Below are positions 13,777 to 55,361 of a stretch of 64,000 nucleotides of DNA, one piece after another. The DNA comes from Moniliella sp. 'wahieum' (lineage: Eukaryota). The notes below the pieces were generated by a model. It ran no database searches and had not been told where the DNA came from. It saw only the letters and a program-made list of their open reading frames with translations. Where the stretch lies: the NCBI GenBank assembly GCA_003971905.1, contig RSEE01000004.1:496001-560000 (forward strand). Direction: 5' to 3'. The position numbers were made by a program, and so were the translations under genes. The first letter of the stretch is position 1, and each line of letters opens with the position of its first letter.

Positions 13777-15491
13777 GGGCGCAGAGCGGGCGGGCGGGTC
13801 GTCGTGGCAGCACGAGTCGAATGCAAGCCGCCTTCCTCGCCTGCGCCACGAGCGATGCTGAGCCTCCGGCGGCTGATGACGCTGGCCACCTGGCGGCGCC
13901 ACCCAGCTGACGTAACCGACACCTAGTGTCCGGTGGCCATGGCACGTGACCCGAAGTATGCCAGGACCCAAGATGCATGCATCATGCATGATGCATGATG
14001 GTTAAACGTTAAGGCCGTCATTTCTGTTACGACGAGTGCTGTATATGCACCACTGTCTTTGTTTGGCCCCACCTCACCATTGGCAGCCAGCCCGAGCAGC
14101 CCAACCAACGTGAGTCGGACCACGCATTCACCGGCCTCACCAACCTCTTGGATCCCCCGTGCCCATGGCCTGAGTCCTGCTTCCCACGCATTCCGTGTGC
14201 CGCATTCTTGGGGAATTGTGTGGGGCGTCTTCCAAGAAAACAGCTACCTGAGAGATATATGCTGGCGCCGATACACACATGAGAAGTGTTGTGCATTGAC
14301 TAAACTCTGCCCCCTCCTTCTATCTCACCCCCAAAGTATCTCCCAGAGAGTGGTTACGTCCCTATAACAATGCGCGAGCAAAATTATTGGAAGCGCTCTT
14401 CCATCAGCAGCCTTTTCCCCTCCCCCTCCCCCTCCATACACCACATGCCCAAAATGTTGTGAGTGGCACTACCCTATAGTTAGAGGTTTGGTTGCGCCGC
14501 GCTCCCATATCGCGCCTCTACTTTCTTCCAATTGTAAGCCGCATGTGTAGTAGACACCACTGGGGCATTCCTCTGTTCTTCCTTACCACCACCCCTTCGC
14601 TCAACTCGTTACTTCGTTCTTGCTCATCTGCTTCTGGTATTGTTTTCTGTCTGCCGTGCAGTACCTCGCTACACGATCATATGGATCAGGAATGAGCATA
14701 AAAGGAAACAACCCATCATTAACCTGGTGTTGGTGGTCGTATGTAGGATCAAAGAAGAGAAGCTTGAAGTAGCAACTTACAGCTGTTACATGGATATGAC
14801 TGTGCATGTGTGGTGTGGGTTGTTTTGTCACATCTCTGTTGTCAGTGTCATCAGGCCTGAGGACCCCTTCAGTGTGTCGTCGGGATGACACAAAAGAGTA
14901 TGGTCCGGTATGGATTATTGTGGACGAGACGCGGGTTATGTGCGACCAAGACTGGCAACACGGTGTGTCGAGCATTGGAAAAGGAACGTATACTCAAGAG
15001 TCTCTGGCATAGGAGAGATCGTTCATCGCGACTGATCAATCTCGATCATCGCTCTCACACTCATGTCCATGTATAGTATGAATACCACGTTCATTCGTAT
15101 CCGCTCGCGCGACATGCGGTTTGGAAAGGTGGAAGAGGGTCATACGAGTACACCCACGTTGGCTTTGTCATTGCGCTGGCTCGAACTGACAGCAAGCACA
15201 CCGCATGTCGATGATGAGCCAGCCTGCGGTATTACAAGCGCAGCACATCTTTGTCCCCTTCTGACGGTGTGCAATGCCACATGGAGACCGGCGGCGTGAT
15301 GATACAGAGGCAACATGTGATGTCCTGATCATCATCAGTGCATCAGTACTCAGTACGTTCAGTACATATCAGCACTCGTCTCAGATCTTGGGATGCCAGA
15401 ATCTCAGATCTCAGGCACTCCGACGCAGGCACAGACGGGCACTGGCCCAGCCCGTCGCAGCGCCAGGCACACACCTGCACACACCCGTGCG

Positions 15492-15520
15492 TGATGCATG
15501 ATGCATGATGCATGATGCAT
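15492..15520. repeat. Heptamer array (TGATGCA)4
   Basis: TGA at 15492, 15499, 15506 and 15513. Confidence 0.9.
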
Positions 15521-16019
15521 TGGATGATGCCGCGTGAGCGTGATGCGATTCGTGGTGGCACGGCTGGGGCCGCACTGGGGCAGCAGGGGCGGGTGGGGCG
15601 CATGTGCCGTGCATATTGCATGTGCACTGGGGCACAGTGTGGTTTAGCACTCTCCTGAGCATCTCCTGGGCAGCGCCTGGCAGGCTGGGCGCGCTGGGCA
15701 CTGGCTGGGTGCTGACGCTCTGAGTCTGAAGGCTGTCAGAGCATCGAGTGGTGGCCGCATGCGTGCAGCCTGCGTGCAGCAGGCGCTCTGCGCCTGTGTC
15801 TGCTGGCTAGCCGCTGCCAGGGGCTGCCTCCGCGCTTGGTACGTGGATATACGCTGGCTGCGTCGAGCAGCCGTTGATTAATGATTGCAGCTTGCTTTGC
15901 CTTGGCCAAAGCGCCAAGCGCTAACCGCTCCCATCACCCCATCACAAAACGCCCTCCCCGCGCTCCTCTCCACCACCTCCACCACCTCCACCACCTCCAC
16001 CATTCCTCGGCTGCGCCCC

Positions 16020-19000: not shown

Positions 19001-20569
19001 TCGCTTTCGGCAGGGGCAGCTACCAACGGCCCAGCCACCGCCTCAGGGGAGAGTGGCAAGCTTGCCGTCCCGACAGCTCCTACCCCCTCTGCTCCCACTA
19101 GCACCCCCCCCCTTCAACGTGGCCAGCAAGCACCTTTTCTCCTTCCCTTCGCCTCCCTGCCCCACAAATCCAATCCACCCGTTCTCCTGCCCTCCCTACG
19201 GTACCCGTTGCTACCACTGCAGTTTCGACTGCGGCGCCTGTTGCAGCTGCTGCATCCAGTGGCCACTCTGATCTTCCCGCCGCCTTCCCACCTGCCCCCC
19301 AAGCGTCCCTAACTCCATCCTGGCCCCCGCTGTACCTGCGGGTTTGCCTGTACCGTACACTAGTCCCTCGGCACCGGCAGCGTCAAGTGCAGGCCCGAGC
19401 GCAAGCCCAAGCACCATCCCAAACCTAACCACTCGCCTGCTCGCCCAACAACAAGTAGTGTACGACATCTTGCGATCTGCCAACCTGGACCCAGCGCCTC
19501 TTGTCCAAAGTGGCACGCTATTGCAGCACCTGGCCCACCTCGACCAGGCTACTCGTACTCGGTTACTAGAGGCTTTAAAGACGTTGCGCCAACTTACGAC
19601 GGACGCCCAGGCGCAGCAGCAGGCCGGGCAAGCGCGCATGCCCACCCAAGCTGGTCAAAATCATCTCCATACGCCTCCCCAGCTTGTCCAACCGCCAACG
19701 CAAGCCCACCCCCATCCCCAGACTTACACTGATCAACCGCACTCGAACGGTCACGGTACGCCAGCGCAAGCCAAGACTGAGGCTGAGATGCGAGCAGCTC
19801 AAGCTCAGGCTCAAGCACAGGCATGGGATCGGGATCGGGCACAAGCTCAGGCGCAAGCTCAGGCTCAGGCACAGGCGCAAGCACATGCACAAGCACAGGC
19901 ACAAGCACAGGAACAGGCACAAGCTCAAGCCCAGTTTCCTTGGCAGGCTCAGCCAGCCCAACCGGACTCCCATCCACAACCCGTCCCTGCAAGACAGAAC
20001 GCTGGGACGTTAACGATGCTGCAGCAGAGTACCTTCTCAACTTCCAACAACAGCAACAACAACAACAACAGCCTCAATCTCAACCTCAACCTCAGCCTCA
20101 GCCTCAGCTTCAGCCTCAGCCTCAGCCTCAACCTCAATCTCAACCTCAGCCTCAACCTCAATTGCTACCTCAACTGTTCTTGCGCGCAGCAGCAACACCA
20201 ACCCCTGCAACCACAACCACCCCCGCTGCCACAGCACGACTTGAGTGGGCTAAGCCTCCAACCCGGCGCTCTCACGCCGGCGCAAATGCAAGCCCTGCAG
20301 TGGCATCTTCTCCAGCAAGGACAGGGGGGCTCACTTCAAGCGCTGCAGGCTCAGCTGCTGCAACGTCTGTCTGCCCCGGGGGGTTGGGCGTGTCAACGTC
20401 CGTTTTGACCGGGGGTCCTGTACCAGCGCCAGCGCCTGTGCCAGCGCCGAGGCGTCTGGGGCCAGGCCAAGAGGCAGGCCAAGAACAAGGGCAAAACCAG
20501 GGCCAGGCGGGGGAGCCGGATCCGCTGGCGCAACTCTACTCCCAGTTCCCCCTTCCATACCGCCCCTGA
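16020..20569 (+). CDS. Probable Mediator subunit 25-like protein (VWA-like domain, ACID/PTOV-like domain, Q-rich tail), frameshifted
   Basis: VWA-like TILVLLPVE...VIAPFV...VGTVFYGT...LLAEALVAALELL...CVYILS; ACID-like VVYRGNITW...LLPWPRSLAI...YHSLARGLASKQASAFI...GILLVSV...LRLLAFVF, spliced across intron 18546-18606 (GTACGT...ACTAAC...TTCAG); QA and QP repeats. Confidence 0.55.
19795..20165 (+). repeat. Coding hexanucleotide repeats giving (QA)n and (QP)n/poly-Q
   Basis: CARGCN repeats at 19795-19930; CAA/CAG and CARCCT repeats at 20045-20165. Confidence 0.85.
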
Positions 20570-20757
20570 CCAAAACAACGAAGCGCCAAGGCGCCACAGC
20601 GCCACAGCGGCAAGCACTATGGGGAGGTCCTGCGAGTCTGTTTTGCCACCATCTGCATATTCAACTCCAAGTTCAAGGTTGCTTTGGTTGGCTCCTTTAT
20701 CTATGATCCGTTTGCGTACCGGACGGGTGGACATTGTGCCTGGTCCATCCGTGAAAT

Positions 20758-22172
20758 TTATTTGTACCCTAGTTCTGGGCTGACGAGGTTGATGAGGCCG
20801 AGGTGGCAGTAGTAGGGTGTGGAGGAGGATTGTCGACTGGTGCCGAGAGGTCTTTGGAGGGAGGCGGAGTAGAGTAGAAGCAGTGGCGGGGGTGGCAGAG
20901 GGGACTGCGGGGGATGGGTCCTTGGAGGGGATGGTGTCCTTGGAGGGAGATGTATCAATGGAGGTAGACGGAGTGGTAGTGGTCGAGGTGGGAGAGGGGA
21001 GGGAGAGTCCTTGTGTTCGATAGGACGAGAGCTGACGTCGTACGGCTCAAATGGGAAGAAGAGGCGATTCTTCGGCCAGCGCGGGGTGTCGGGGTCGGTG
21101 GCGACTGCACATGTACCGCCGCGCGAGGCAAAGCGGACCAAGCGCTGGTCCGGATCGAACGCGCGCGCGAGCGGGTACTCATACACCCAGTACGGCGTCG
21201 AGTCATGCTCATGCTTGACCAGCAAACTGACGCGCACCGCGGGGAACGAAGGCATGCCCATCCCACCCCCCACAACGTCCAAGTCCGAGAGCTGACGTGG
21301 GGCGAGGATAGGGCCGAGTGTGTTGGTCATCAGCGCTTGCGTGCTAAAATTCTTGGTTACGGCACCAACGGTAAGATGAGGCATGTAGATGTCCTTGGGT
21401 ACCGGTGCTGGTATGGCACCCATATCGACCAGCAAAGTTTGGATGCGATGCTGCTGAAGCAGTAAGAGGCGCCGAGTACCTTCCTCGCCTTGGACAAGTC
21501 GGTAATCTGGCACATTCGGAGGAAGAGGAGAATGAGGAAGAAGGCTATCCTCTGCCAAGCCAGGTGGTGGGGTGAACTTTCCCGTCCGTTTTAATTCCTC
21601 CTCCGCTGTCCGGATGGCTTGGCGGTGTCGGGCCTTGTCCCGCCCGACGATGCGGGTTAGGTCCCAGAGCTTCCGCTCAGGAACGGAGTAGGTCGGAGGT
21701 AAAAGAGGAGCTTGTTGGGCGTGACGAAAAAGTCGGAAACAGGAAAGTTGAGACTGAACGCACCACCGGGGAAGGTGTGGGTCAACTTGCGCAGGGCGGA
21801 CGAAATGTGCTTGACATAGTTGATGAGAGGAGGAACGTAGTCTTGGGGGCCGCGGAGGAAAAAGTGGTCGGTTTCGGGGATGGTGTCGGCGCTTTCGAGT
21901 GCAAAAGGTGGTGCATTGATCATCCGTCCTTTTCGACGGTACCTGGCCTTAACCTTCCCTTCGTTGTCCCACTGCATGCCATGATCACGCGGGATGGGGC
22001 TCTTGAGCATAAACGGCGATATGAGCGGGATGTGTGGAAGAAGCGTGTCGTGGTGAGGATCATGCAGGCGGCGGACCCGCTGCAGTTGCTTGTACATAGC
22101 ATGAGAAGCGGGACTGTGGGGCTCGATCATGAGCGCCACCATGGCTTTCAGTCTTCCCCTGAGAGCAGACAT
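20758..22172 (-). CDS. 2H phosphoesterase / 2'-5' RNA ligase-like protein (frameshift or intron near 21660)
   Basis: LQRVRRLHDPHHDTLLPHIPLISPF resembles the first fungal 2H motif region (PHITLLYPF type); YMPHLTVG is a second HxT motif, followed by FPAVRVSLLVK. Confidence 0.6.
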
Positions 22173-23241: not shown

Positions 23242-23334
23242 GGCGAGGGGGGGTGATGGCGGTGGTGTCGGGCCCAGGGCGGCTCAGAAGGTCGGGAGAC
23301 CGAGCGGAAGAAAGGCGGAGGTGAAATGGAACAT

Positions 23335-23526
23335 TGAAAGTTGAACGTTGAAGGTTGAACGTTCAACGGTTGAACATATATTTGAACACGTTGAACATTG
23401 AATATTGAATGTTCAAGTTGAACGCAGCGGTTAATTTCATATTTCAACAACTCAGACCTCCAATGTGACATGTGACATGCGATCATCGATCTGCTCGATC
23501 ACTAGTCACCGGTCACCGCTCATCGA
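23335..23526. repeat. Compound heptamer arrays: (TGAACGT)-like, (TGACATG)2 and TCA-CTAG-TCA-CCGG-TCA
   Basis: TGA at 23335/42/49/56, 23392/99/406 and 23466/73; TCA at 23499/506/513/520. Confidence 0.85.
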
Positions 23527-26370: not shown

Positions 26371-29300
26371 TTAAGTCGTCGTGTCGGACATAGGAGACGG
26401 AGAGAACCGATCGCCATGCTCCAAGGGGAGAGAGGAAATCGGAGACGACGGACGCATACGTGAGGGGCGCCTATGCGCGGGAGCGGGCGGGAGGAAGCCG
26501 TCCAGGGGATCCAGGGGCTCGACTTCGCCATTAAACGGACTGGGGACCGAGGTGAGCACGCTCACGGGTGAAGACGCATCCGACACCTGACCAATGGACG
26601 ACGAAATGAGATCCTGAATTCCCTCGTCCTCGTCTAACTTGTCCTCAACGGCCGCGGAGACTGTCCACGTCATATCCCCGGTGGCGAAGAGAGATCGGAG
26701 GAGGAGACGGGGGGGGGCGCAGGGGTGAGAGCCTCTTCCCCAGGTTGTTCCAGATCGGAGAGGGAAGACGTGTCGCTGAACGTGTCGATGATTGCAGCAA
26801 GGGACGTATCCACCGTTGTACTGGGGTGGTCCCCACCAATGGACTCTTTCCCGTCCACCTCCCCAACTGCTTTCATTCCAAGAGGACCATCTTCAAGGGA
26901 CCCAGCTCTCACAAGGGGTTCATCCTCAAGAGGCTCGTCCACACTCGCTTCCCTCCCCGAAGGTCTCCCTCAAGTGACTCCTCCACAACGGATTCCTCTT
27001 CAAGAGGCTCCTCCACAAGGCAGTCCTCTTCAAGATGATGGTCCTCGTGGAACTCCTCTTCGTAAGGGGTTTCTTCAGGAGGCATCTCCTGAGCAGGCAC
27101 CTCCTGAGCAGGTACCTCTTGAGCAGGCACCTCCTGAGCAGGCACATCTTGAGCAGGCACCTCCTGAGCAGGCACTTCCTGAGAAGGCACCTGAGCTGGA
27201 ATCTCCTGAGCAGGAATCTCCTGAGCAGGAATCTCCTGAGCAGGAATCTCCTGAACAAGAATCTCCTGAACAAGAATCTCCTGAACAAGAATCTCCTCAG
27301 CAGGAATCTCCTCGGCCGGCTCCTCAATAAGCGTCTCCTCAATATTCCCCTCCTGAGAAGGCTCCTCATTTGCAGACACATCCATAGTAGGCTCTTCCGT
27401 AGCAAGCTTTTGCATACGAATCTCCTCACTAGGCACATCTTGGGCAGGTGGATCATCTTCGAGGGACCCATCTTGCACAAGAGATTCAGCACCTAGACGT
27501 TCCTCCACTCTGGCTTCCTCTGCGAGAAGGTCCCCCTCAAGTGGCTCTTCCACAAGGAATTCTTCCTCGAGAAGGTCATCCTCGTGGAACTCTTCTTCGC
27601 AAGGGGTTTCGTCAAGAGGCACATCCGTAGCGGGCACCTCCTTAGCAGGCACCTCCTTAGCAGGCACCTCCTTAGCAGGCACCTCCTTAGCAGACACCTC
27701 CTGAACAGGCACGCCCTGAGCAGGGAACTCCTCAAGAGGCCCCTTATCAGCCGGCTCCTCAATAAGCGACTCCTCAAGAGACCCTTGCTGAGTGAGCTCT
27801 TCAATAAGCGTCACATTAATACGCTTATCCGGAGCAGGCTCCTCCACAGGCTTCTCCTCAAGAGGCCCCTCCCGAGCAGGCTCCTTCATAGGAAGCTCAT
27901 CCTGAGAAGGCACCTCCTTAGCAGGCACCTTCTCAGCAGACACCTTCTCAGCAGACACCTCTACAACAGGCTGTGCCTTAGCGGGCTCCTGTTCTAGAGG
28001 CTCAGCACGAGGCTCTTGCCCAAGGGGATCCTCTCGCGTTTCCCCCTGACCAGGATCACTCAAACGGGATTGATCTAGAGGTACTGCGGAATAGGCGCCG
28101 CCTCACCCGGCTCACTTGGCGAGACTCCACCTGCCGTAAAATCTCCGCAGGAGGCTCCGACTTGCGATGCTCTCCTCCTCTCGACACCCTTCAACATGAG
28201 CCTCCTCAGCATGAATGCCCCGATGAAGATGCTCTTCCTCCAGGTGGCGTACCTACGCGCGGCTCACCCACATGTGGGCTTTCCTCCAGCGCTTGATTCA
28301 CGGGTGACTTTGCCTCCATTGGGACGGTTGCGCCCGAACCTTCGGCTAATGGGTCCGTCAAAGTCAACGAGGCCGAGGAGACGAAGGACGCCGCACCCTG
28401 TGGGGTTGGCACCTCCTCGGTAGCAGAGAGTTCCTCGCCTTGGTAGTGGGAGGCAGGCACTGCAAGCATGGCAGTGGTTTGCCCCGCCTCAGATGAGACA
28501 GCGTCTTTCATCGGCTCCATAGGAGGGTGGGAGGGAGAGGCGGCTGGGGGTTCCAATGACGGTACGACGCAGTCCTCCTTCTCAACTGAAGGATCCACAG
28601 TGGCCGGCGTGGTTGTTGGCAGGATTAGCTCCCCGTCCGCTTTTTCCACTTCCTCCATCTGGCTGGCAGATGGTTCGGGCCCAGAGGCGGGTTTGGGTGC
28701 AAATGGTGCAAGGGGCGATGATCCCCCTCATGTTGGCAGGTGCGTCCCCTGAGGAAGTGGGGACCATAGGCAGAGGAAATGGACCTGCCATTTCGGTGCT
28801 CACCCCTGGGACTACGGGGGAAGCAGGGGTAACCGTCACGTCCATCAACTCACTGGAGGGATGACCTGGCTCGGCGATAGGGAGAGTTGTAACCAGCTGA
28901 GAGGAAGGGTCGGTATTTAATTCAGCGGCAACGGAGACGGGCGCATCCTCCGTTCCTTCCATGGCAGAGACGGTGCGGGGCTGTTCAGGGAGGCACATAT
29001 TCAGTTGTGAATGCGTATGTGCCTCTCCCACTACGTTGACCTCGAGTGCGGGGGGTGCTGGTCGTGCTTCAGCACTCCCCTGGTCGGTGGACGGTATCCT
29101 GAGCACCGGTGATTCCGTTTTGGCGGCGGCAGGGATCGTCCTCGTGGTACCATGGGGGGCTGAGTAGTGGTAGTACTACACCCGGTATGACGTTGGGAAG
29201 CATCGTCTTCAGCCACGCTGGCCACCGGCATCACACTTTCATGGTCCTTGGGCGCCAGAACATGTTGGCTTTTGTTCTTTCCGTTCAACTCGTGAGGTCT

Positions 29301-30970: not shown

Positions 30971-31180
30971 GTCGGAAACGAAGGGGAGACGCGTGCTCCA
31001 GAGTTCGACACTGCAAGCGCAGAGGGAAAAGGAGACAACGGCGATGGTGGTGGCGATGGAGTTGAAGAGTAGTCCGCCGTGCCCCGCCGCTAGCGCTAGC
31101 AGACGCAGCGGCGACAACTCTGGCACACTAGTCATAACCCTACCCTACCCTCTGTCGTGTCTGCTATGCCACGTCGCCTG

Positions 31181-31228
31181 TGACATGTGACATGTGGCAC
31201 GTGACGCGTGAAGCTTGAAGATGCATGA
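31181..31228. repeat. Mixed-spacer heptamer array
   Basis: TGA CATG TGA CATG TGG CACG TGA CGCG TGA AGCT TGA. Confidence 0.85.
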
Positions 31229-31937
31229 GCCTGAGGTCGGGGGTTTATCCTTAGTAGCCAGGCTAGCAACACTTCCCCCCAACTCCGGCAATTTCCCCAC
31301 CACATCATATTTTCTTCAGCCACACAAACTCCATCCCTGTTCTCCGCTCGGGGCCCCACCTTTTATGAGGATGGCCCAGTCATGAGGCCAAGACGGCAGG
31401 TGTGAGGCGATACGACAAGCGAGAGATTTCCGCGGTGAGACTGCCCTCGATGTGCAAACAAATGCCGGTGTATACACGCGTAGGCTTCTCGGAAGTCAAA
31501 GAGGGACAGCAAACCAGACCAGCCGTATAGCATCGTAACGCGCGAGTAATGCGAAACGCGCAACGCGCCAACGTGGGTGGGCCAAAAAATAAATGACGGC
31601 GGGAGAGGTAGGACAGGTGACCCGGATGGGCGCGCGATCGGGACAAAGGCCAGGATTGCGATTTCACTAATTTCACTTCCACACCGGGGCCAGCCGGCCG
31701 TTTGGAAGGCGGGGCCAGTAGGGTTGGAGGCAAGCAAGCGCCCTGCTGGAATTTCTAAGCGGGGCCCGGGCACGGGGCGGTGCTCACCTATATGCCTGAC
31801 AGCGCACGGCCAAAGCCGGCACCGGCACAGGACGAGTGTCCTGCCCGGACGGCCCCGTGGCCGCTTCTTCAGGCTGGGGCTGGAGGCGCTTGGGCTGGCG
31901 GTGCTTTGCGAGGCTTTGCCCGACACCCTCCACCGCC

Positions 31938-33151: not shown

Positions 33152-33968
33152 GACGCATGAACGTTTAATCCGGGTGCCACGACGCCAACCAAGAAAGTTA
33201 TTCCATCCATCCCTTGGGCCTGTTATGTTGGGTCGCTCGACATCGATATAGTCGAGGTCGCAGGTTGTACTCGGTGTGGTTCGATGCTGTGGTTCGATGC
33301 TGAGCCCATCGCTGTTGACTAAGAAAGTTCGCCTGAACAAGCAGTGGACGTTGGGCTATCATGTATCATTTTGGTTGCGCCTGCACCCTATGTAGGTCTG
33401 CAATACAGTTGAGAGCCGCCAGACTGGGCCACGTTTGTGTCTTGAGACGTTCCGCCGCTTGATAGTCTGAGGCCTCAGTCTGAGGAGAGTCTTAGTGGCC
33501 CCGTCTTCAGGCTGTTATAACTATCGACGTCGCAAGTCTCTTCCTCATCAACCTCATAGGCCTCATCGACTTCATCGACCACCTGATGGCGTTGTTGATG
33601 TCTGTCTTCTTCCTTGGGTGTCATGATCCAGGATGGGGTGCCAATGGGGGAACGGGTGGGCAGAGCAGGAGCTTGCTGTTCTCCACCTCCGCTCTATATT
33701 CCTCCTATCCTCATTCTCTCGCCGCAGACGCCCAACCGATGGGGAATCTAAACTATGAGGAGACAGCAAGGCACGTGCATAGATTGTTAGCACAGCCCAA
33801 GCAGGCAGACAGGTGGGGCCAACACAATGCCCGTATGCGGGTCATACAAAAGCAACATAATCGCTGGCTCATTAGTATCTGATCAATTAGCCCTTGGCAG
33901 CGGAGCGACGCGACGTGGATCCCGACGGGTCGGGCGGGGGGAGGGCTTGAGAGAAGGTGAGTCTTCTA

Positions 33969-38350: not shown

Positions 38351-38745
38351 TCACGTGACGCGTGACGGGGCATGGCGATGCAGGAATGCATGGGGTGATG
38401 CATGATGCATGATGCATGGACCTCCTGGTCCTGCCTCGAGGCTTGGCGCTTGAACGTTGCAAATCGGAGAAGCACATGCCACATGCCACATGCCACCGGC
38501 CGCATGCCGCGTGTCCCAGAGCCGTCGGCGCATGCAACTTTCAACCAAGCGCACCCTCCGGGCTGCCGGGGTCCGTGCGCAGCGGGGGCGCAGCACGGGG
38601 CCAGCGTCCCTGGGCATCGCACCGCCCGGCTGTAGCCGACAGCGCTGCTATATGCTAGCCCATCATGCATGGCGCATGACGGTGACCGGTGAGTGTCCTG
38701 TCAGAGTGGCCGTGACGCGTGACGATGCGATCGATGACTAGTGAC
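38351..38745. repeat. Heptamer arrays upstream of SPE3-LYS9
   Basis: TGA CGCG TGA (38356), (TGATGCA)3 (38396), CCA CATG CCA CATG CCA CCGG (about 38479), TGA CGCG TGA and TGA CTAG TGA (38713-38745). Confidence 0.85.
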
Positions 38746-38911
38746 TACTCGCAGCCAACGGAGAAAAGCTGATACGAAGACTGGACAGACCGGCACGGCG
38801 CCGCAGTCGCAGCACTCCAGCCAGCCTCCCTACCACTCGGCATCGCCAGCGGTGGCTTTTTTCTTCTTCTTCTTCTGCCTTGCTGCTCTGCCCCACCACC
38901 TCCCTTGCGCC

Positions 38912-41221
38912 ATGGCCCAATTCTCCCACCCCCTTATCCGTGACGGCTGGTTCCACGAGATCAACTCCCAGTGGCCTGGCGAGGCCATGGGCCTCCAGGT
39001 CGTCCGCATCCTCCACCACGAGCAGAGCAAGTTCCAGGATGTGCTCGTCTTCGAGAGCACCACCTTTGGCAACGTCCTCGTCCTTGACGGTGTCATCCAA
39101 GCCACCGAGCGCGACGAGTTTTCGTACCAGGAGATGATCGCCCACCTCCCCCTGGCCAGCCACCCCAACCCCGAGCGCGTGCTGGTCATTGGCGGTGGCG
39201 ATGGCGTGCTGCGCGAGGTGGTCAAGCATGACTCGGTCAAGGAGGCCGTCCTGTGCGACATTGACGAGGCTGTGCCTCGTGTCAGCAAGCTGTACCTGCC
39301 CCACATGGCTCAGGGCCTGACGCACCCCAAGAGCACGGTGCACATTGGCGATGGCTTTGCCTTCCTCAAGCAGCCCGAGAACAAGGGGGCGTTTGACGTG
39401 ATCATCACGGATTCCTCCGACCCTGTGGGCCCAGCTCAGGCGCTGTTTGAAAAGCCGTACTTCCAACTGCTCAAGGAGGCGCTCAAGCCCCGGCGGACAC
39501 ATCTATACCCAGGCCGAATCGCTCTGGTTGCACCTTCCCCTGATCCGCGAACTGCGTCAGAGCACCAAGGAAATCTTCTCGGTGGCCGACTATGCCTTTA
39601 CCACCATCCCCACCTACCCCTCGGGCCAAATTGGCTTTGTCATCTGCTCCACCGAGCCGACGCGCAACGTGCGTGTGCCCGTGCGTGAGGTTCTGGGTTG
39701 CAAGTACTACAATGCCGATGTCCACAAGGCGGCCTTTGTCCTCCCCGAGTTTGCTCGCGCGGTCATTGAGGAGGGGCGGCGGCGCCGGGCCCTGTCGTGG
39801 CCTCGGGTGATGGGGGCCCCGCGTCCCGTGACGCTAAGAAGATTCTTCTGCTGGGCTCGGGCTACGTTGCCCGTCCCTTCGCCGAGTACGTTCTGCGTTA
39901 CCCCGAGTACAGCTTGACGGTCGCATCGTCGCGGTTGGCCAATGCCCAGCGCCTGGCTGAGGGTCTGGCGCGTACGACGGCCACTTCGGTTGATGTGAAC
40001 AACCATGCTCTGGCCGAGCTGGTCGGGCAGCACGACATTGTCATCTCGCTCATCCCCTACATTTACCACGCCAAGGTGATCGCGGCGGCGATCGAGAAGA
40101 AGGTTGATGTGGTTACCACTTCCTACGTCAGCCCTGCCATCCGCGAGCTGGCGCCCAAGATTAAGGCCGCAGGCATTACGGTGATGAACGAGATTGGTCT
40201 CGACCCTGGTATTGACCACCTCTACGCCGTCAAGGCCATTGCCGACATCCACGCTCAGGGAAAGAAGGTGAAGGAGTTCTATTCGTACTGCGGTGGCCTT
40301 CCTGCCCCCGAGGCGGCGGACAACCCGCTGGGATACAAGTTCTCGTGGTCCTCGGTGGCGTCCTGCTTGCCCTTCGCAACACGGCCAAGTTCTGGCAGAA
40401 AGGAAGCAAGGAGCCGGTTACCATTCCTGGCCCCGAGCTGATGAAGTCGGCCAAGCCTTACTACATTAGCCCCGCCTTTGCCTTTGTCGCGTACCCCAAC
40501 CGTGACAGCACGCAGTACCGCGAATGGTACAACATCCCCGAGGCTGAGACGGTGGTGCGTGGCACGATGCGCTACCAGGGCTTCCCCGAGTTTGTCGAGC
40601 ACTTGTCAAGCTCGGCTTCCTCGACGACTTTGCCAAGCCTTACCTCACCCTGCCCAACATCAAGTCCTGGGCTGACATTTTGGCGGCCGTGACCGGCTCG
40701 CAGAGCACGGACCCAGCTTCGCTCGCGGCCGCGGTGCGCAAGATTGTGGAGTTCAAGACGGAGGAGGAGGCGGACATGGTACTCCGTGGTCTGCGCTGGC
40801 TTGACCTCTTTAGCTCAGATGTGACCGCCACTGTTCGTGGCACGGCGGAGCAGGAAAAGGAGCACCAGGCAACCTTCTCGACTCGCTCTGCGCTACGCTC
40901 GAGCTCAAGTGCCAGTACGGCCCCGAGGAGCGCGACATGGTCATGCTCCAGCACAAGTTCGTCACCGAGGACAAGGATGGTAACGAGGCGACCCTCACCT
41001 CTACCTTGCTCGACTTTGGCGTGCCCAACGGCTTCTCTTCGATGGCCAAGACGGTGGGTGTGCCGTGCGCGATCGCCACCAAGCTCATCCTGGAGGGCAA
41101 CCCCGGACTCAAGAAGCCTGGCGAGATTGTCGCCCCGTACTCCCTCGACGTTACGGAACCCATCCGTCTCGAACTCGAGAAGGAGGGCATTCCTCGAGGA
41201 GCGCTGGATCTAAGTGGATGA
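38912..41221 (+). CDS. SPE3-LYS9: Spermidine synthase - saccharopine dehydrogenase (reductase) fusion protein; several indels
   Basis: [21 protein letters not shown]...VLVIGGGDG...[15 protein letters not shown], followed without intergenic space by [12 protein letters not shown]...[14 protein letters not shown]...[23 protein letters not shown]...[13 protein letters not shown]. Confidence 0.95.
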
Positions 41222-42998
41222 CTAAAGGCGAGACTCGTCCCATCTTCCCCCCTCGGAACGCTTGTTTGTGTGTTGTGGAGCGATGCCGTTGGCTCCAGTA
41301 TGAATGGATGGCATAGGCATCAGTATGGTTCTATCTGTAGCATCCAATCGTGCACCACACTGCTAAAGCAAAGATGCTATCAGTAAAGCCAGTATTGCGT
41401 TGGTCTTCGATCGAGCTTCAACCAACGTCCATTCCTGCAGCCCGTCCGTCGGTGCGAACTGCTACTGCTATAGTAGCAATAGTGTAATCCTGGCGACCGG
41501 CCGAACCTGATCGATATCAGGGATCACTAGCACTCGATCACATGATAATCGTCGATCGCATTATCGTGCCAGGATGCTCATGCGCTCATAACTGACTGAA
41601 AGCTGCCCAAGTCAGATGCGCATGTCAATCACGAGATAGATGATGATACGATGCACGATGCATCTGATCTTCTGATCTCTGAGGATCTCTCGATCCTTGA
41701 AGTCAGCTTGAAGGTTGAAGACGTTGAAGCTTGATGCCTACACGTGACGTCGCATTAAGCATTGGGATGCAACACCGTTCGCACGAAGTAGAATCATCAG
41801 GCTGCGGCCCAGGAGGGGGTGTGGATCTCTCCGCAAAGAGATCCTGACTTGCGAGATCAGCGCCAGCTCCATCAGCGCCAACGCCGACTGCTGAGCGCGC
41901 TCCTGGCTCAGGCTGAGCCCTCAGGCTGAGCGCGCTCAGACTGAGCAGCTTAGCATTCTTGGCCTCATTCGGGCAGATAGCTTGAGTAGTCTGAACAGGA
42001 GCTTGGCACCGCCGTCTCAGATCTCACATCTCACACTACTGCCCCCCTGTCCCTCGCAACATTCCCCGCGCGGTGGGGGCGAAGATCGGGCGACATCTGA
42101 CGCACTCAACGACTGGTGGCGCGTGGCGCGCCAGAAAAATAAAAATTGCAAAACGGCGACGGCGTCCCCTGCTCTGGTCCAGGTAGACACACAAGTGGAC
42201 GGGTCGTACGATTGCTGCCCTGGCCCCCACCACCCATTGCCGACAGTCGACAAACGTGTCTCTTGCCTGCTGCCCCCGTCTCGCCACTTCACTGTGCTGG
42301 TCACGCGCTCTTTTACCCACCGGTCAGGCTGAGCCGTACACTGCATGTGCAGTGAGAGTACTGAGTGTGGCTCATGAACCCATCCTGTCCCCAGACGCAC
42401 GCAGAGTCTGCCTCCGTTTTCCTTTTGCCCCTTCGTTATTGACAGGAGCGCGGTGGATACGAGGGGACCAATCTGACCATCGGTAACTAGTAAGCAAGCA
42501 ATCCCCACAACTGTTGCATGCTTGAATACCTGCTAACCAGACTGTCCCCTATATTGAACCGCCATTCTTCCTGCCCCCACCACGTTCAGTCGTTCGCCCG
42601 GCGGCAGGGAAAACAAAAGGTGTGTCGTGATCCTGAGCCTGTGGGACCAAACTACGAGGAGACCGGACCGCGCATGCGCTCAACGGAGAACATGGCCGAC
42701 GCCCTCAAGCCCCTCGCTCCTCGAGCTCAAATCATTTTTCTTTATGGCGCTGTCCGTATTACTTGAAGATGAGGCTCTTAATAGCGTCAAGGGGCCTCAC
42801 CGGCCCCGTCCTCATGGCCCATATGAGGTTATCATGTCATTTTCCTCAACTCCATCACTAACGTTTGCTTAAACTAGGCGCGATCCTACTTAACGTTTTC
42901 ACCTTCATCTTCCACCCTCCAAGCGCTTGCACCACGGCACCCATTGTTGTCCTCCTCCTTATTTTCATCCTGCTCATCCCGGACGACAATTGCTCAAC

Positions 42999-46049: not shown

Positions 46050-46127
46050 AATATTATTTATCGAGAAAACAGTAATTGGGCGAAAGAGAAAGCGAAAAAA
46101 GAGAGAGAGAGAGTGTCCTTAATGACC

Positions 46128-49100: not shown

Positions 49101-49725
49101 CGATTCCGTGGCAACCGCCGCCTTTTTCGCCGCCTCGAAGCTGAGCGAGTAATTTTCCTGGTCGGCATCTTTTTCACCACCGGGCTGGCTTGGTCTTAGC
49201 CTTGGAGGCAGGCACAGGTTTCTTGGATTCCGACGCAATGACGGGTTGCTCGACGAGGCTGTTCAAGCTGCGGGTTTGCAAGGCAGAGTTGCCTCCCATG
49301 GCTCTGAGGGGTGGAGGGAGGCAGGGCCCGGGGGGGGTAGGAGAGATAATTCCGTTTTCCTTGTTGCTCAAGCGAGGGGCTGCGAAGAGGGCAGGCTCAA
49401 AAGAATCGAGGGCCGGCTTGGCCCGCACCTTGCGCTGCGGAGACTTGACAAGATCAACGAGCCGGCGGCTGCGCTCGTCCTCACGCCACCACCTGCTGGA
49501 GACGTCAAGTAGAATTTGGGAGTCAGCTGTTTGCTCCCAAGACCAAGAAGGGCGGGGGAGAGACGTACACATAGTGCTGCCGGAGAGTGGCGCCGTCGGA
49601 GATCATCTGGAGTGCCCAGTCCATGTCGAGGTGAACCTCAACATCGAGGGAGCAGAGGGCATCCAAGCTGGAGAGGAGGCTGCCCAGCGTGGTGGGCGCC
49701 CGGGAGCGCGTGTGGTAGTGGCCAT
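46128..49725 (-). CDS. Inner centromere protein INCENP (Pic1/Sli15-like), frameshifted; start approximate
   Basis: C-terminal IN-box IELPEVRSEYSMSDDE...PDWCKG...LEAQMDIDTDALFG...IEEMF...RPRSSSANWAGDDGL...EIERY; long low-complexity and charged upstream ORFs. Confidence 0.85.
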
Positions 49726-52330
49726 GCTGGGGATGCTGAGCGGATCCAGGCGGATGTCGAGGCCGGGGTTGATGGCGATGGAGTTGGAGTTGGGGATGGT
49801 GGGGAGCGCCAGGGGGTGGTTGGACCCAACCCTGCGGCCTAAGGCCTGTCCAGCCGAAGCACCTCACCGGTGACGGTCACCCCGGCAAGAGTGAGAGGAT
49901 GGAGTCTAGAACGTTCAGGCTGCACGCTCAGCGCGCCCCACGGCGCCAGTGTTGCCGCGTCGTCCGAATATCAACACCCACCCGGTGTTGCAATCTTTCA
50001 GTCGGCGGCTCCTCCAGCTCAGCCCAACCAGATCAACGCATTAGGCGTGTTGAAACCGCCATGTCACCCCCCCACGCGCCCACTGGCAAGACCCAACAGC
50101 ACCAAGCCATCGCGGCTGAACGGTGTAATGCATGGGAAGCGTGCATATCGACTTCACTAGGAGACGGCCGTCGGACCCGCTTTACACTTGCCGTTTGTAC
50201 GTTATCCGATGAACAAGATGCGGGTTCCTCCTGCCGAGAGACCATCGAGGAAGGAACTGAATCTCCGCACCCAGTGGTCGGAATGGAGGCAGCAGGCAGC
50301 GCGAGAAGAAGAACCAAGCGAAAGTAAGAGAGTGAATGAGACCCAAACAGCTGAAACGTAACTGGTTTTGGGTACAACAACCCTTGTACCTTTCCCTGTT
50401 TATCCAAGCCAATGTCATACTAACCGCCGGGCGTGTCAAAAGACCCAGAGAAAATGCCAGTAGGAAGCGAACCGCCGATCCTTGTCGGCGTAGGGTCATC
50501 GCTCGAGCCCCAGCTGGGTCTTGTTCATGCATAGCTGTACGACAGCCAGAAAAACGGATATAGTATTAGTGTAGTTGTAGAGCTCTGCGTCGCGGTTGAC
50601 ATCGATCGGACCGTCAAGCTATTTCTTTAACTTCAGGGGATAGTTTTCCTGGGGAATTCGTCCACGCTAGCACTCCTCGTCTTACTGCAAACGGTTCTCA
50701 TTGGTGGCCCTCCTCGGGCACTATAAACATCACATGATGCGTAATAGAGAGGGGTATGGGCAGCTTCCGGAAAAAACAGACAGCGAACGTCGTCCATACT
50801 GCGCAAATAATGTAGATGCACCTCGGGAGTTGTAAGCCCACACATGCAGGACACTGGCGAAAGTCTTTTATGTCCTTTTTATAGCCAGCAGGAGCTGGGT
50901 TCGTTATGAGTACGACCCGATTCCCGCTTTTCAGTCCCAGGTATAAAAACCGACTTTAACATATGACACAGTCGGGGGCTGAGATCCGGGAACATTGGAG
51001 AGGAAAACCAGAGCAAAGACGATGTCGAGAACTGCAGCAAACAGAAGTGTGTTGCGACGGTGACCAGTTTCACCGATGGCGGCCACTTCTGACCTAACTA
51101 GCTCTCACTAGTCCGAGGCTCCGCGGGCTACTGAAGAGGCTGATTGATGCGCGCACCAGCGTAAGCTAAGGCCGTAGCCTTCTCCTGTAGCCCACGTCCG
51201 TCTTCCTGTCACCAACGCCTATCTCTCACCCGCAATCGATGGCCTACGCTACTGTCCTAAACGCTTCAGTATCCATTGCAGTCTCCATAGCCGGGTGGAC
51301 CAGGACATCGCTGCAAGTGGACCTATCAAGCAAGGGAACAATCTGAACAAGGGGAGGAGTGAGATGCGCATGAGACAGAGAAATTGGAAATGTTGGGAGC
51401 GAAAGATCAGCCAGCCGATGATACCAAACCGTGTCTGTGGTGCCCTTGTTTCGCTTGATTTGCCGCCTTTTCTTGTAGGCTGTGTGGGCTGGTTCGATTG
51501 TCGGTTACCAGTTACTAGCCCTCATCTGGGCAAAAACCGTGTGTTTTTTATATGGATCCGTCATCGATTGGACATGAGTCCAGCAGCATAAGCGAAAAGG
51601 TCGCGCGGCCGATGATGCACGGAGGAACAACTCTCAACATCTCGCCGTCTGGGGCCAGTGATAGCCCCGAGAGTTTTCTATGTTAGTACTTATTAACAGA
51701 AGAGGGAAATGGAGGAAAGGATGAGCATTCATATTCATCGAGGGGAAGGAGGCGAGGTATATGTACCTCGGAGAGAAGAGAACGTGCGAGCTGAGTCACA
51801 CGGAGGAAGAAAAGGGAGCATAATATAAAAAGGGAAAACAGGGTCTAGAACAGATCAGGGTCCAGCTACCCTATACTGTGGTGACTATAGTATGTGTGAC
51901 CACAGGTGGGTCTGATGCCTCCAGTAGTTATGATCAGATCCCTGTGTTGACCGTGTAGTTGCTTAAACCTCCCGCCCCTAAGGATGATGTACGGCCGCCG
52001 AACCAGGGGGGTAGCCCTGTCCTCTGCTCCATTTGTCCCCCGCATATTGGCGGCGTATATGGTGGCGAGCCGTGCTCGCACAGTTCCTTGTTTCTCTCTG
52101 TGGGGGGCGACGGATATTTTGACACCGTCACTGCCCTCTTAGATCTTAGAACGGACCCCGTGCCCAGCGAGGCATTCTTCGGGTGGACACTCTAAGTAAC
52201 CACAGCTGGAACGCGGGGGGTCAGTACTCAGTCAGCTAGTCGGGTCTCCCCATCGCCCCTGCACAAGGACTTTTTTTGACCATATGTCCATCCGGATCCA
52301 GTGACTACGGAGGGGAAAGGTGTTGAACGT

Positions 52331-52485
52331 TGAGTGTTGAGTACGTTGAGTATACTGAGTACGTCGAACCCCTGATGGGTCACACACATAATATATCCAC
52401 ACACTGGATGTGCCTACTCTACTATGATTATGACCCCCGGTTCTGGATCTTCCTTGAAGCTTGAAGCTTGACCGGTGACGGTGAC
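52331..52485. repeat. Heptamer arrays
   Basis: TGAGTAC-type units at 52331-52362; TGA AGCT TGA AGCT TGA CCGG TGA at 52455-52478. Confidence 0.85.
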
Positions 52486-55361
52486 CCCTTTATGTGTCTC
52501 TTTCCCTTCCTCTCGTATATACGGCACCACACTCTGGCATGCCGGCCTGAATGAACGCCATCTCTTCGGCAACCAAAGCATCACACTCCCAGTTGATGCA
52601 TGATGCCCAGTGTAATAGGGGGGAGGACAGAGCTCAAAAGTACAGCTTCAAAAGCAGCTGTGCCGCGTGGCCTTCATTGTTTTGGGAAAGCCGGAAGAGA
52701 GGGCAGCATGGGTGGGCTCCATTGCACGTGTCCCCTTGCGTGTCTCAAGACAGACGGAGACCTGGGTGGCTGGTTCAACCATAGGACCGTCCAGCCGTTC
52801 ACGCTGCGCTCATATTCACCAGCCGCTTCTCAGGGGGTGCGCCATGGGGGCGGCTGTTCCTCCGCTGTTGAAACGCCTCCTGTGTCGTTTTTCGTTCATC
52901 CTCGCGCACCAAGGCGCCACTGGCATAGCTGAGAACTGCAGAATCGCAGCGTCGATTTTGGCCTGGTCCAATGGGCCGCAGAGAGAGGCCAGCAAAACAA
53001 TATAGGGGGAGGGTCAGTTGCCGCAGGTACCCGCCGACTCAATGAAACTCATTAGCCCATCTGGACAGCGACTGTCACGCGCGCAAAGAGGAGAGGGGAT
53101 GGTGCACGGCATACGCTTATGGGTGAGGCTGAGGAATGGGAAAGATTCGACGCCATGCATGACATGGATGAAAAGCAACAAGCCACAGAGGGGCGCCGTA
53201 ACGCGGAACGCGTACTACCGCGCAAGACAGATGCGCCCATCCATCCAACGTTGAATGTTGAGCGTACCAGGGTGTGGGGCTCCGCCTGAGCAGTCAGCGG
53301 CTGACTAGTGACTGCCAAAGCGCCAACCACCAAAAAGCGGGGAAGAGCAGCCAAGGGCGGAGTGTGAACTCGACGTCCCCGGTGGCGGTGGAGACAGTGT
53401 GCGGTCCGAGTCACTAGTCAGCGCCACCAAACGTTCAATGTTCACTGCTCCTGCTAGCTTACTCAGTACTGCGTACCATTAATCATCGAGTTCACTATCA
53501 ATCCCAGCTGGTTCCTCCCCGATTCTGCAACGCGCCATGAAATTTAAAATGGAAACGCTGCTCAGCTCCATCGGTGGATGCGTGTGGAGTGTGAAATGGT
53601 GTGAAAACCTTCTGCGGCGCCAGACACGCAAAAAGTTTGATTTGACTCCAGGAACCGTGTGGGGCGCTGCGCGCTGGCTGGCGCTGGCGGCGGGGCAAGG
53701 CGGAGCCCCACAGCTTGGTCACCAACGCCCCCAGCGCACCCAGCACAGCCAGCACACCTTGGTTTAACGTTTGCCGGTTGCCGGTTACCGGTATCGACCA
53801 GTGGCTAGTGGTGCCCGGTGCCCGGTGCCCGGCGCCCCTCTCCAGATGGAGAGAGCGGAGGAGAGCGGTGTTGGTGCGCGGGGCTTGCCTGGCCTTCAAT
53901 GGCCCATGGCGGAGATTGCGGCAATGATCGAGTCGGGAGAGGGGCTGGCGGTGTGTGTGGCACTGTGGGGCACGTTGCAGCATGGCCCGTTCTTGATCTG
54001 GCATCTTTGAATCAGCCCGAAAGCTTAAATCTAATCAGCGCCCAATGGCCGCGGAGGATCGATGATGCATGTTGCGTGATGCATGATGCGTGCCATGGGA
54101 GCCTAGCATGCATGATACGCATCGGTGGCCAGGCCAGACAGCGCCCCAGCCTGGATCGGCCCGTCGCACGGAGCTCCTTGCAGTCGACGTGGTATCGGTG
54201 TGGTCGGTGCGTTCACGCGTTCACGCGTTCACGCCATCCCCAATCGCGACGCCAATCGCAATCGGCGGGTGCTGTGGGCGGTGGAGACGCCCGTCTCAAG
54301 TGCCTGGCCCCTGGCGCTGCCGCCAGAGAGCGCCGTGCCGCAGTAGGCAGCAATGCACCGGCGACAGTCCGCAGTCCCCACCGCACCCTATTGCTGCCCC
54401 CTCGTCCCCTGTGGATGGTACATCGGTGACCCCTCGGTGACCATCATCGATCGTCATCGATCATCGATCAGGGCCCAGCGCCAGGCGAGTCATCAGCGAT
54501 CATCCATCGTTCGTTGGCGTTGCTCTTGCTTGCTTTGCGATTCACATCCTCCAGCGCTGGAGCGCAATCAATTTACCAGGATCAATATTCAATCTGCGGG
54601 GGAAGCGGGGAAAACAAGGGGGTTCGCTGGTGTCGTTGGAAATTGGAGCGTGCCAGGCGCAGGCCGGAACACAAGAGCGTGAATGTGGGCATTGGGATGA
54701 ACGATGAGATTGAACATGCTGAGAGAATTACGACGGTAGGATCGAGGGGCGGGGGAATATTGGGGCCAGTTGCCGCCTCGATTCTTGGCACAAGGCCTGC
54801 TCGTGAGGAGGGCGGCCTGCGTTGCGGCAACCAGGCGGTTGGGGCCGGGGGCTGGTGCTGGGACCGTGGGGGAAGATGCCGAGCACCAGCCATGCGCCCC
54901 GGGGGATGTGACACACCGGCGGCCATTTGGGGGCGGCAGGGGGGCGCAGGCGGGCTGGCGGGCAGGGGGGCAGGGGGAAGCCCGTGGTGGGTGGACGTGG
55001 GGCAGCACAGGGGCAGTGCCTCTCCGCATTCTTCTCCTGCCGCCCCGTGCCCGGGCGTGCGCTGGCTGCCGCATGCGCAGTCCCAGCCGACACTGGCGGG
55101 GTGCGCAGCAGCACGCAGCAGCAGCACGCCCGCTCTCCGCCAGCCAGCCCGACGGCGCTGCGCTGCAGGGCGCTGCTCTGCGCGGCGACTGGCTGCCCAC
55201 CCCCCCGCCTCCATCTCGGCGCCGCACACCCCACCAGCCGTCCCTCCGCCTCACCTGCAGCCCCACCACCACCGCCTCCCCCTGCTGCCCGCCCTTGCCG
55301 CCCGCCGCCCTCGCCCTCCGCGTCCTCGGCCCGCCCCCTGCCACCCAACGCTCCTCTGCTC

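Follow-up and report, generated by a model that had tools for sequence, protein, structure and literature searches.

That transposon excision leaves footprints containing P nucleotides, i.e. palindromic nucleotides copied from the flank, is known already. hAT, Transib and MULE elements, as well as RAG, leave hairpins on the flanking DNA that are opened by host enzymes (excerpts of PMC5499845), and Ac/Ds footprints in C. albicans, S. cerevisiae and plants display P-nucleotide palindromes, with two dominant products in C. albicans (35 and 18 of 128) and a ligase IV able to join ends without microhomology (excerpts of PMC5873905). In these excerpts, the Ac/Ds joints are ascribed to hairpin-capped flanks, opening by nucleases and end joining (PMC5873905, PMC5499845). 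Here we analyse a 64,000-nt stretch of Moniliella sp. 'wahieum' (assembly GCA_003971905.1, contig RSEE01000004.1, positions 496,001 to 560,000), hereafter the window, whose intergenic regions carry arrays with a period of 7 nt built on T-(G/C)-A cores (TSA). A preliminary description presented these arrays as a trinucleotide followed by a 4-nt palindrome, a grammar that is correct but incomplete. It is better seen as a 7-bp duplication centred on TSA with a remodelled junction, where each event is a net gain of 7 nt at n1n2-T(G/C)A-xy and where the 4-nt spacer equals either xy followed by its reverse complement, rc(xy), or rc(n1n2) followed by n1n2. In the explanation that we propose, and to which we give a probability of roughly 55%, the arrays would have built up from scars left behind on excision by a cut-and-paste DNA transposon, or by an activity derived from a transposase.

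The arrays resemble Ac/Ds footprints in that the duplication is retained and that short P-nucleotide palindromes and small losses are found at the joint. However, Ac/Ds duplicate 8 bp and leave palindromes odd-centred on the complement of the element-adjacent base (excerpts of PMC5873905), whereas the duplication here is 7 bp, the palindromes have an even centre (xy|rc(xy)) and all bases unchanged, and a single outcome dominates. Unlike Ac/Ds footprints, the scars here would be natural, dense and iterated into arrays. The hAT target consensus is nTnnnnAn, while in the window T is the third and A the fifth of seven positions, on either side of a G or C, and neither a hAT transposase nor hAT-type inverted ends were found in the 64 kb. 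Seven bp would fit only the hAT7 subgroup (hAT5, hAT6 and hAT7 duplicate 5, 6 and 7 bp; excerpts of PMC12730594). In the same excerpts, hAT7 and Kyakuja are cut-and-paste elements with 7-bp duplications in Basidiomycota, described from Pucciniomycotina and Agaricomycotina (Ustilaginomycotina have 0 mentions in PMC12730594), and what agrees with the window in these descriptions is the length of the duplication. No Kyakuja element (KDZ; CA..TG termini without inverted repeats) or KDZ transposase is present in the window.

V(D)J coding joints and Transib share with the window even-centred P-type palindromes, the signature of hairpins formed exactly at the boundary. In Transib/RAG chemistry the hairpin closes right at the edge of the flank, and a nick some 2 nt away from the tip then gives 4-nt self-complementary overhangs. 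The likeness is one of sequence signature (36 junctions versus 0.285 in shuffled sequence), and there are differences: RAG and Transib insertions duplicate 5 bp whereas intact 7-mer junctions occur here, untemplated addition is absent and trimming is slight when compared with V(D)J joints. No RAG- or Transib-like gene or heptamer-type end was seen in the window. What P elements leave behind on excision are nucleotides from the element ends, not palindromes derived from the flank, and Galileo and other elements of the P superfamily are known from animals, not fungi. Galileo of Drosophila generates a 7-bp target duplication with the odd-palindromic consensus GTAGTAC (excerpts of PMC2775673), hence a 7-bp odd-palindromic target is not unprecedented; length and symmetry agree with the window, whereas the centre is A-G-T instead of the T-S-A of NNTSANN. 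In rice, DNA-transposon excision footprints have been catalogued genome-wide by comparing two genomes for known elements (excerpts of PMC4423477), whereas here they would be recognized by internal structure alone and form tandem arrays. In the literature searched, we found no description of heptamer arrays with such a grammar, or of promoter repeats that arise from iterated excision scars, and literal searches with six 10-mers from the arrays returned primers and unrelated sequences only. As far as we have seen, novelty lies in the target (7 bp, T-S-A), in a joint that is even-centred and almost invariant, in its iteration into arrays and in the density.

Heptamer arrays and the flank rule

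Dinucleotide shuffles of the window (20, 50 or 200 replicates, depending on the test) were used as null models. About 25 of the 136 rows reported by Tandem Repeats Finder have a period of 7, and exact tandem duplications of at least two copies with this period number 32 versus 3.3 in 20 shuffles, the corresponding figures being 71 versus 55 for period 5 and 8 versus 0.9 for period 8. Period 7 is outstanding among the periods that are not multiples of 3. In some rotation, 17 of these 32 duplications have as their unit a perfect odd palindrome a-b-T-[S]-A-b'-a', a property that a random 7-mer would have with a chance of about 7/64 (simple arithmetic); T and A flank the centre in all 17, with G or C between them in 16.

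The spacers between cores are strongly biased towards self-complementarity. TGA-N4-TGA occurs 44 times (14.5 in 50 shuffles) with a palindromic N4 in 28 cases (0.8), TCA-N4-TCA 26 times (17.4) with a palindromic N4 in 12 (1.06), and palindromic N4 summed over all 64 trinucleotides amount to 139 versus 65.1 (standard deviation 7.8). Forty of the 70 same-centre TSA-N4-TSA pairs have a palindromic spacer, when about two are expected. The shuffle test revealed no comparable excess for 2-nt spacers and only a small one for 6-nt spacers (33 versus 17.4). As the preliminary description had it, the spacer is variable, since 14 of the 16 possible palindromic tetramers are used (TGCA is the commonest, with 11), and inverted forms do exist: 40 of the 45 sites in which two TSA cores flank a palindromic tetramer are direct (same centre base) and five are centre-flipped. 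The excess of palindromic spacers and of period 7 over shuffled sequence, on which that description had made its case depend, was confirmed, and all the example arrays that it cited are present where it had placed them.

The extent of exact period-7 identity around the 35 loci with such sites is informative. It is 10 nt at none of them, 11 nt at four, 12 nt at 12, 13 nt at six, 14 nt at six and longer at seven, whereas 56% of loci should end at 10 nt were a 10-mer the unit (simple arithmetic). The minimal object, and the mode of these extents, is a 12-mer [T-S-A-x-y][y'x'][T-S-A-x-y] on either strand, i.e. a 5-nt direct repeat with a 2-nt filler reverse-complementary to the dinucleotide that precedes it. 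Such P-like fillers are abundant when unit and filler add up to 7 (90 versus 10.4 for 5+2, 64 versus 9.2 for 4+3 and 92 versus 8.4 for 6+1) and not when they do not (5 versus 3.0 for 5+3 and 2 versus 0.6 for 5+4).

A census of neighbouring same-centre TSA cores, in which n1n2 was taken to the left of the first core and xy to the right of the second, and for which 200 shuffles were made, shows how far flanks predict spacers. Among 70 pairs with a spacing of 7, 15 are right-type, xy+rc(xy), 11 are left-type, rc(n1n2)+n1n2, and 10 are both, a total of 36 versus 0.285 in shuffles (maximum 4). Two more are unmodified, xy+n1n2, versus 0.165 (TCTCACA x2 at 42022 and GTTGAGT x2 at 52329). Intact 7-mers separated by two P-type bases are found in four of the 60 pairs with a spacing of 9 (versus 0.025; at 31662, 41714, 52336 and 59647), and by one P-type base in three of the 32 pairs with a spacing of 8 (versus 0.035; at 15333, 54211 and 54219). 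The negative control consisted of 330 kb of unrelated eukaryotic metagenome contigs, about five times the window (80 loci matched by the C-terminal Hsp90 exon, with an identity of at most 74%). It contains 143 TSA-N4-TSA, nine of which are palindromic (1/16 is expected) and one of which obeys the flank rule, compared with 70, 40 and 36 in the window. The other junction classes number 0 (unmodified), two (plus 2 P) and four (plus 1 P) in these control contigs. TGA and TCA cores supply 36 of the 81 rule-obeying junctions when all cores are considered, and the remainder are mostly rotations of the same arrays (ATG, CAT, TGC). From the intact 7-mer classes it follows that n1n2-TSA-xy is what was duplicated, a symmetric target of 7 bp around a central T-S-A. 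The common 12-mer is then best read as a 7-bp duplication with a remodelled junction that would have gained two P bases from one copy and lost two bases from the other.

Loci are depleted from coding sequence, where the preliminary description had noticed none. None of the 35 overlaps a Pfam-matched stretch (13.5% of the window), and 12 of the 35 fall inside six-frame open reading frames (ORFs) of at least 200 codons, which make up 61% of the window and many of which are spurious in G+C-rich DNA. Because a gain of 7 nt destroys the reading frame, the absence from genes needs no special explanation or promoter function. The placement of arrays upstream of genes was borne out as well, several loci lying about 0-800 bp upstream of the Pfam-supported Hsp90, adaptin, spermidine synthase, fibrillarin and MIT-domain genes, where gene starts are approximate since start codons were estimated from where Pfam domains begin. 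Loci are clustered in some intergenic regions (52.1-54.6 kb and 38.35-38.75 kb), and other intergenic regions are devoid of them.

Putative route from excision to arrays

A 7-bp target-site duplication together with reverse-complement bases at the joints is the signature of insertion followed by hairpin-type excision repair. From the sequence rules and their statistics, we infer a transposon, hairpins, a nick position and a joining route as follows. An element would insert at NN-T(G/C)A-NN and duplicate these 7 bp, the central T-G/C-A containing flexible TG/CA steps that are often favoured by DDE enzymes at the centre of a bent target. Excision would leave each flank closed by a hairpin exactly at the end of the duplication, and host nucleases would nick each hairpin 2 nt from its tip, which is what Artemis does; a nick at 3 nt would give an identical product because T pairs with A. 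The outcome would be self-complementary 3' overhangs of 4 nt, one strand carrying xy+rc(xy) and its counterpart rc(n1n2)+n1n2. They would span the same 4-nt gap, so that each strand could be ligated without trimming or filling. Either the strands would be joined untrimmed and the 4-nt mismatch settled by replication, or one overhang would be kept and the other lost, yielding n1n2-TSA-xy.rc(xy)-TSA-xy or n1n2-TSA-rc(n1n2).n1n2-TSA-xy, in both cases a net gain of exactly 7 nt with a palindromic spacer. Since replication would separate right-type and left-type products, such a strand-symmetric process predicts that they are nearly equal in number, and 15 versus 11 were observed.

Each scar would add a new TSA target in a perfect odd palindrome, and further cycles, together with later slippage, would extend the array by 7 nt at a time. 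An array grown from one n1n2-TSA-xy would be expected to have rc(n1n2)+n1n2 spacers in its left block and xy+rc(xy) spacers in its right block, with perfect units produced by internal re-use. A point mutation in an end flank would be copied symmetrically by the next event, which would explain how spacers change while palindromes persist. A nick at 4 nt would flip the centre base and may account for the rare inverted form (five of 45 sites), one example of which, at 14851, also fits its own flank. The mixed arrays at 52453, 42015, 52320, 59647 and 31179 fit the model flank by flank. At 31179 the CATG of the left block fits the flank TG and the AGCT of the right block fits the flank AG, and under the model the CGCG/CACG in the middle would be expected from a CG flank before its CpG-to-TpG change.

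Several points weigh against excision scars. To our knowledge, a 7-bp duplication and an even-centred footprint do not occur together in any characterized hairpin-forming family. No element with inverted ends flanked by a TSA-centred duplication was found in the 64-kb window, where inverted-repeat searches, searches for inverted ends with a 3-9 bp direct repeat and inspection of 1326 pairs of TSA-centred 7-mers gave hits that were at chance level or internal to arrays. Comparison of 307 ORF translations with Pfam revealed no DNA-transposase domain, only host genes and a degenerate copia-like retroelement. The density is high, for 64 kb contain 35 or more loci with some 45 junctions that fit the model, and this demands very many cycles of insertion and excision or a large share of slippage. 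Arrays with TGC, TTG and CCA cores have grown despite departing from T-N-A; these cores (TGC and TTG/TTA at 53771-53837, CCA at 38473) and the T-T-A duplications at 52137 and 59742 leave two possibilities, a core preference that admits exceptions or an amplification of units by slippage as well. There are also plain misfits: the 10-nt palindromes at 33468 and 49864 have no flank support, the 4-nt filler TCAG at 41696 is not P-like, and the array at 23499 (TCA-CTAG-TCA-CCGG) lacks the predicted left flank. The TGATG-CA-TGATG form, which accounts for about seven of some 30 independent loci (3565, 11527, 13984, 15492, 38396, 52594 and 54077), is far commoner than that of any other flank dinucleotide, possibly because the target preference extends to CATGATG, because this form grows more easily or because it is selected. 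Finally, the outcome (two P bases on one side, two nt lost on the other) is more uniform than the Ac/Ds footprints in the excerpts of PMC5873905.

A more specific proposal, which we advance tentatively and regard as less probable than not, is that of an undescribed and highly active transposon lineage, or a domesticated transposase, combining a 7-bp T-S-A target with RAG/Transib-like exact flank hairpins. It would have visited most promoters of this Ustilaginomycotina-like fungus repeatedly. New promoter sequence and heptamer minisatellites would then arise mainly from scars, rather than from slippage or selection, and the genome would document, naturally and legibly, thousands of cases of hairpin opening and end joining. 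If excision scars are indeed what we see, one mutational process wrote about one scar cluster per 2 kb of this genome, concentrated near gene starts, and tandem repeats could both originate and expand through transposon excision alone, which would go on producing new symmetric sequence in promoters. The arrays would offer a large and natural collection of hairpins opened and ends joined in a basidiomycete, with the nick at an almost constant offset of 2 nt and hardly any trimming, and would point to a type of transposon (7-bp T-S-A target, even-centred footprints) that matches no characterized family. The signature n1n2-TSA-xy-rc(xy)-TSA-xy can be searched for in other genomes to find the same process, and annotators would be warned by the excision reading that such promoter 'motifs' need not be regulatory.

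Competing explanations

The preliminary description had offered two readings, of which repeated footprints of break or hairpin repair is supported by the anatomy of the sequence, with flank-derived spacers in 36 of 70 pairs versus 0.29, whereas a selected multimeric promoter element is hard to reconcile with the symmetry and with the lack of a recognizable site. In the latter case, a factor would read TGA/TCA every 7 bp, or dimers would read A-N4-T, which would be consistent with loci that are intergenic and often upstream of genes, with the recurrence of identical 12-mers at separate loci and with spacers (ACGCGT, ATGCAT, TGACG) that may resemble motifs of other fungi. However, with 14 of the 16 palindromic tetramers in use, a protein would have to read symmetry independently of sequence, which it cannot do; only T-S-A is common to the units, in 36 cases the adjoining flank dinucleotide predicts the spacer, and since only 32 canonical 12-mers are possible their recurrence is expected by chance. 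We hold this explanation to be very improbable. Replication slippage generating minisatellites, biased towards self-complementary heptamers by nascent-strand hairpins, probably does extend existing arrays, and it would be in keeping with odd-palindromic arrays that are 6/7 self-complementary along their whole length and with the excess of non-T-N-A cores (TGC, TTG, CCA) and of non-palindromic 7-mers, 32 versus 3.3 in all. But slippage needs an existing repeat and copies it unchanged and independently of the flank, whereas the end blocks of arrays match their own flanks and solo 12-mers carry the reverse complement of the adjacent dinucleotide, which it cannot create, in line with the earlier argument that slippage would not keep changing the spacer while preserving its symmetry. 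It would also leave the T-S-A core, the flank-matched two-block arrays and the P-type fillers of periods 8 and 9 unexplained, and as a full account it is improbable. That the arrays are an assembly or sequencing artefact is scarcely conceivable: their structure is sequence-specific, with flank-dependent rules, CpG-type decay in older arrays and avoidance of coding sequence, and although no search was made for one, we know of no error mode that yields such arrays.

Two further explanations stay closer to excision scars. The commonest structure, a 5-mer followed by the reverse complement of its last two bases and by the 5-mer again, would suit transposon scars with a 5-bp duplication (TSAxy), as in Transib or hAT5, plus two P nucleotides on one side only, and the exact-boundary hairpin closure of Transib/RAG would provide the chemistry. 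Yet TSA would lie at the end of such a duplication and P nucleotides at the far end only, which is asymmetric for a dimeric enzyme, and junctions with intact 7-mers exist (two unmodified, three with one P and four with two P), while other P lengths are not enriched (5 versus 3.0 for 5+3, 2 versus 0.6 for 5+4). We judge this possibility to be as poor as slippage alone. Unlikely, though less so, is an endogenous process independent of transposons, in which T-S-A sites in open promoter DNA suffer breaks with a 7-nt stagger from a nuclease of the host, perhaps a domesticated transposase, and the ends are filled or hairpinned and rejoined. No transposon is visible in 64 kb, loci cluster in certain intergenic regions only, and P-type junctions require hairpins or fold-back copying but need no mobile element as such, all of which would agree with such a process. 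Nevertheless, a staggered-cut duplication with hairpin-derived nucleotides is the known joint mark of insertion followed by excision, cut-and-paste elements are often few in comparison with the scars they leave, and, no search having been made, we know of no nuclease that leaves fill-in-competent 7-nt overhangs and also hairpins ends.

Some other candidates were tried and rejected. Scars of Tc1/mariner-like elements (a T-S-A end remnant between 4-bp duplications) would give N4-TSA-N4, whereas the solos are TSA-N4-TSA. A 3-bp TSA duplication with 2+2 nt of element tips would need 14 different pairs of tips, and the presumed 'tip' is identical to the flank in every case. An LTR (long terminal repeat) integrase with a 5-bp duplication does not suit a filler that varies with the flank, and heat-shock or bZIP sites leave the symmetry rule unaccounted for.

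Loci and genes along the window

The window is eukaryotic DNA of about 58% G+C with genes split by introns. Pfam matches include Hsp90, a WD40 protein, a Mcp5/Num1-type PH protein, adaptin, an MIT-domain protein, Sir2, ATP synthase gamma, an MFS transporter, a spermidine synthase-saccharopine dehydrogenase gene, cytochrome b5, INCENP and fibrillarin. Its Hsp90 has its best named relatives in Malassezia nana (86%), Tilletiaria anomala (85%) and Thecaphora, and one further protein reaches 95%, from which we take the organism to be a basidiomycete of Ustilaginomycotina-like affinity.

The loci, listed here by coordinates without strand, begin upstream of Hsp90 with a left-type solo AA-TGA-TTAA-TGA (3395..3406) and a right-type TGATG-CA-TGATG-C in an ATGCATG-rich stretch (3554..3577). 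Between them lies an imperfect footprint, the 11-nt periodic stretch TGA-TATA-TGA-T (3448..3458). Together with a left-type CA-TCA-TGCA-TCA (11527..11538) and the locus at 59647-59669, they are situated beyond the range covered by the preliminary description. At the 5' end of the adaptin gene, a CATGATG/CATCATG array (13976..14000) contains one centre-flipped junction, TCA-TGCA-TGA, and another centre-flipped site, TCA-GGCC-TGA-GG (14851..14862), obeys the right-flank rule. A cluster at 15333..15414 comprises CATCAGT-G-CATCAGT (intact 7-mers plus one P), TCAGT-AC-TCAGT and then TC-TCA-GATC-TCA, and is followed by an array of four TGATGCA units (15492..15520) and a right-type TGATT-AA-TGATT (15875..15886).

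At 23322..23420 lies an old (TTGAACG)n-type array of about 12 units, two of which are TCA-centred (flipped). T-TGA-A is constant in it and the central CG has become CA, TG, TA, AG or GG, a variation (e.g. ACGT to ACAT, ATGT and ATAT at 23335-23410) that is ordinary CpG decay. It is followed by (TGTGACA) x2.4 (23463..23479) and by TCA-CTAG-TCA-CCGG-TCA-CCGC-TCA (23499..23525). The mixed array at 31179..31220 reads TG-TGA-CATG-TGA-CATG-TGG-CACG-TGA-CGCG-TGA-AGCT-TGA-AG, and TTTCACT-AA-TTTCACT (31662..31677) has intact 7-mers plus two P, AA being the reverse complement of TT.

The 38-kb cluster contains (CGTGACG) x2 twice (38354..38367 and 38711..38724), i.e. the identical 14-mer CGTGACGCGTGACG 357 bp apart. 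It also contains (TGATGCA) x3.3 (38396..38418) upstream of the spermidine synthase-saccharopine dehydrogenase gene, an array of TG-CCA-CA type (38473..38508) with CATG and CCGG spacers and a CCA core, one transition away from TCA, a left-type GG-TGA-CCGG-TGA (38680..38692) and a right-type TGACT-AG-TGACT-A (38735..38747). In the gene itself (38738-41218, plus strand), a spermidine synthase domain is followed by a saccharopine dehydrogenase domain on one strand in several ORF pieces, which we take to resemble a fused SPE3-LYS9-type gene of basidiomycetes. Further on, a complex locus (41663..41734) consists of TCTGATC-T-TCTGATC and then CTTGAAG-TCAG-CTTGAAG-GTTGAAG-AC-GTTGAAG-CT-TGA, with one intact-plus-2-P junction, and in TC-TCA-GATC-TCA-CATC-TCA-CA (42015..42035) a left-type junction stands beside the unmodified duplication TCTCACA x2.

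The scar-rich region beyond 52 kb starts with (TCTTAGA) x2, an odd palindrome with a T-T-A core (52137..52150), and a right-type TCAGT-AC-TCAGT (52221..52232). Left-type, unmodified and intact-plus-2-P junctions adjoin one another in GT-TGA-AC/GT-TGA-GT/GT-TGA-GT-AC-GT-TGA-GT-ATAC-TGA-GT (52320..52364), and in CT-TGA-AGCT-TGA-AGCT-TGA-CCGG-TGA-C(-)GG-TGA-CC (52453..52485) the left block would come from the flank CT and the right block from the flank CC. Next come a right-type TGATG-CA-TGATG-C (52594..52606) and TGACT-AG-TGACT (53302..53313), the latter recurring on the opposite strand (53409..53420) so that the identical 12-mer TGACTAGTGACT is found at two sites 107 bp apart, with GC directly before each. 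In the same intergenic region, a 22-nt inverted repeat (53266-53287 and 53698-53719) has arms that are 91% complementary and 410 nt apart. GG-TTG/TTA-CC x3 and GG-TGC-CC x3.3 arrays with CCGG spacers, whose cores are one change from T-N-A, lie at 53771..53837, followed by a TGATGCA-type stretch that includes TGATG-CA-TGATG-C (54062..54092), (GTTCACG-C) x3 with a period of 8, i.e. an intact 7-mer plus one P nucleotide (54209..54234), TCA-TCGA-TCA-TCGA-TCA (54444..54470) and TCAAT-AT-TCAAT (54582..54593). About 150-240 bp upstream of fibrillarin, CCTCATT-GG-CCTCATT-AA-TCATT (59647..59669) combines an intact-plus-2-P junction with a right-type one.

From 59741 to the end of the window at 64000 extends a degenerate Ty1/copia-like LTR retroelement, at the apparent left edge of which stands (GCTTAGA) x2 (59742..59755), an unmodified 7-bp duplication with a T-T-A core. 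Its Pfam domains (pol beta-barrel, integrase core and retroviral SH3-like, at 61089-61685, 61621-62001 and 62239-62547) are in different frames, and the element is therefore frameshifted. Repeats of another kind occur within ORFs. Blocks of 6, 12 and 24 nt (GGCACA, CCTCAA) at 19796-20172, in frame within the ORF 19272-20405, are coding low-complexity sequence with no relation to the heptamers. A long ORF on the minus strand (26912-28102), rich in 15-nt and 30-nt tandem repeats (27080-27312, 27617-27732 and 27839-27961) and with a weak extensin-like match, probably encodes a repetitive, proline-rich secreted or wall protein.

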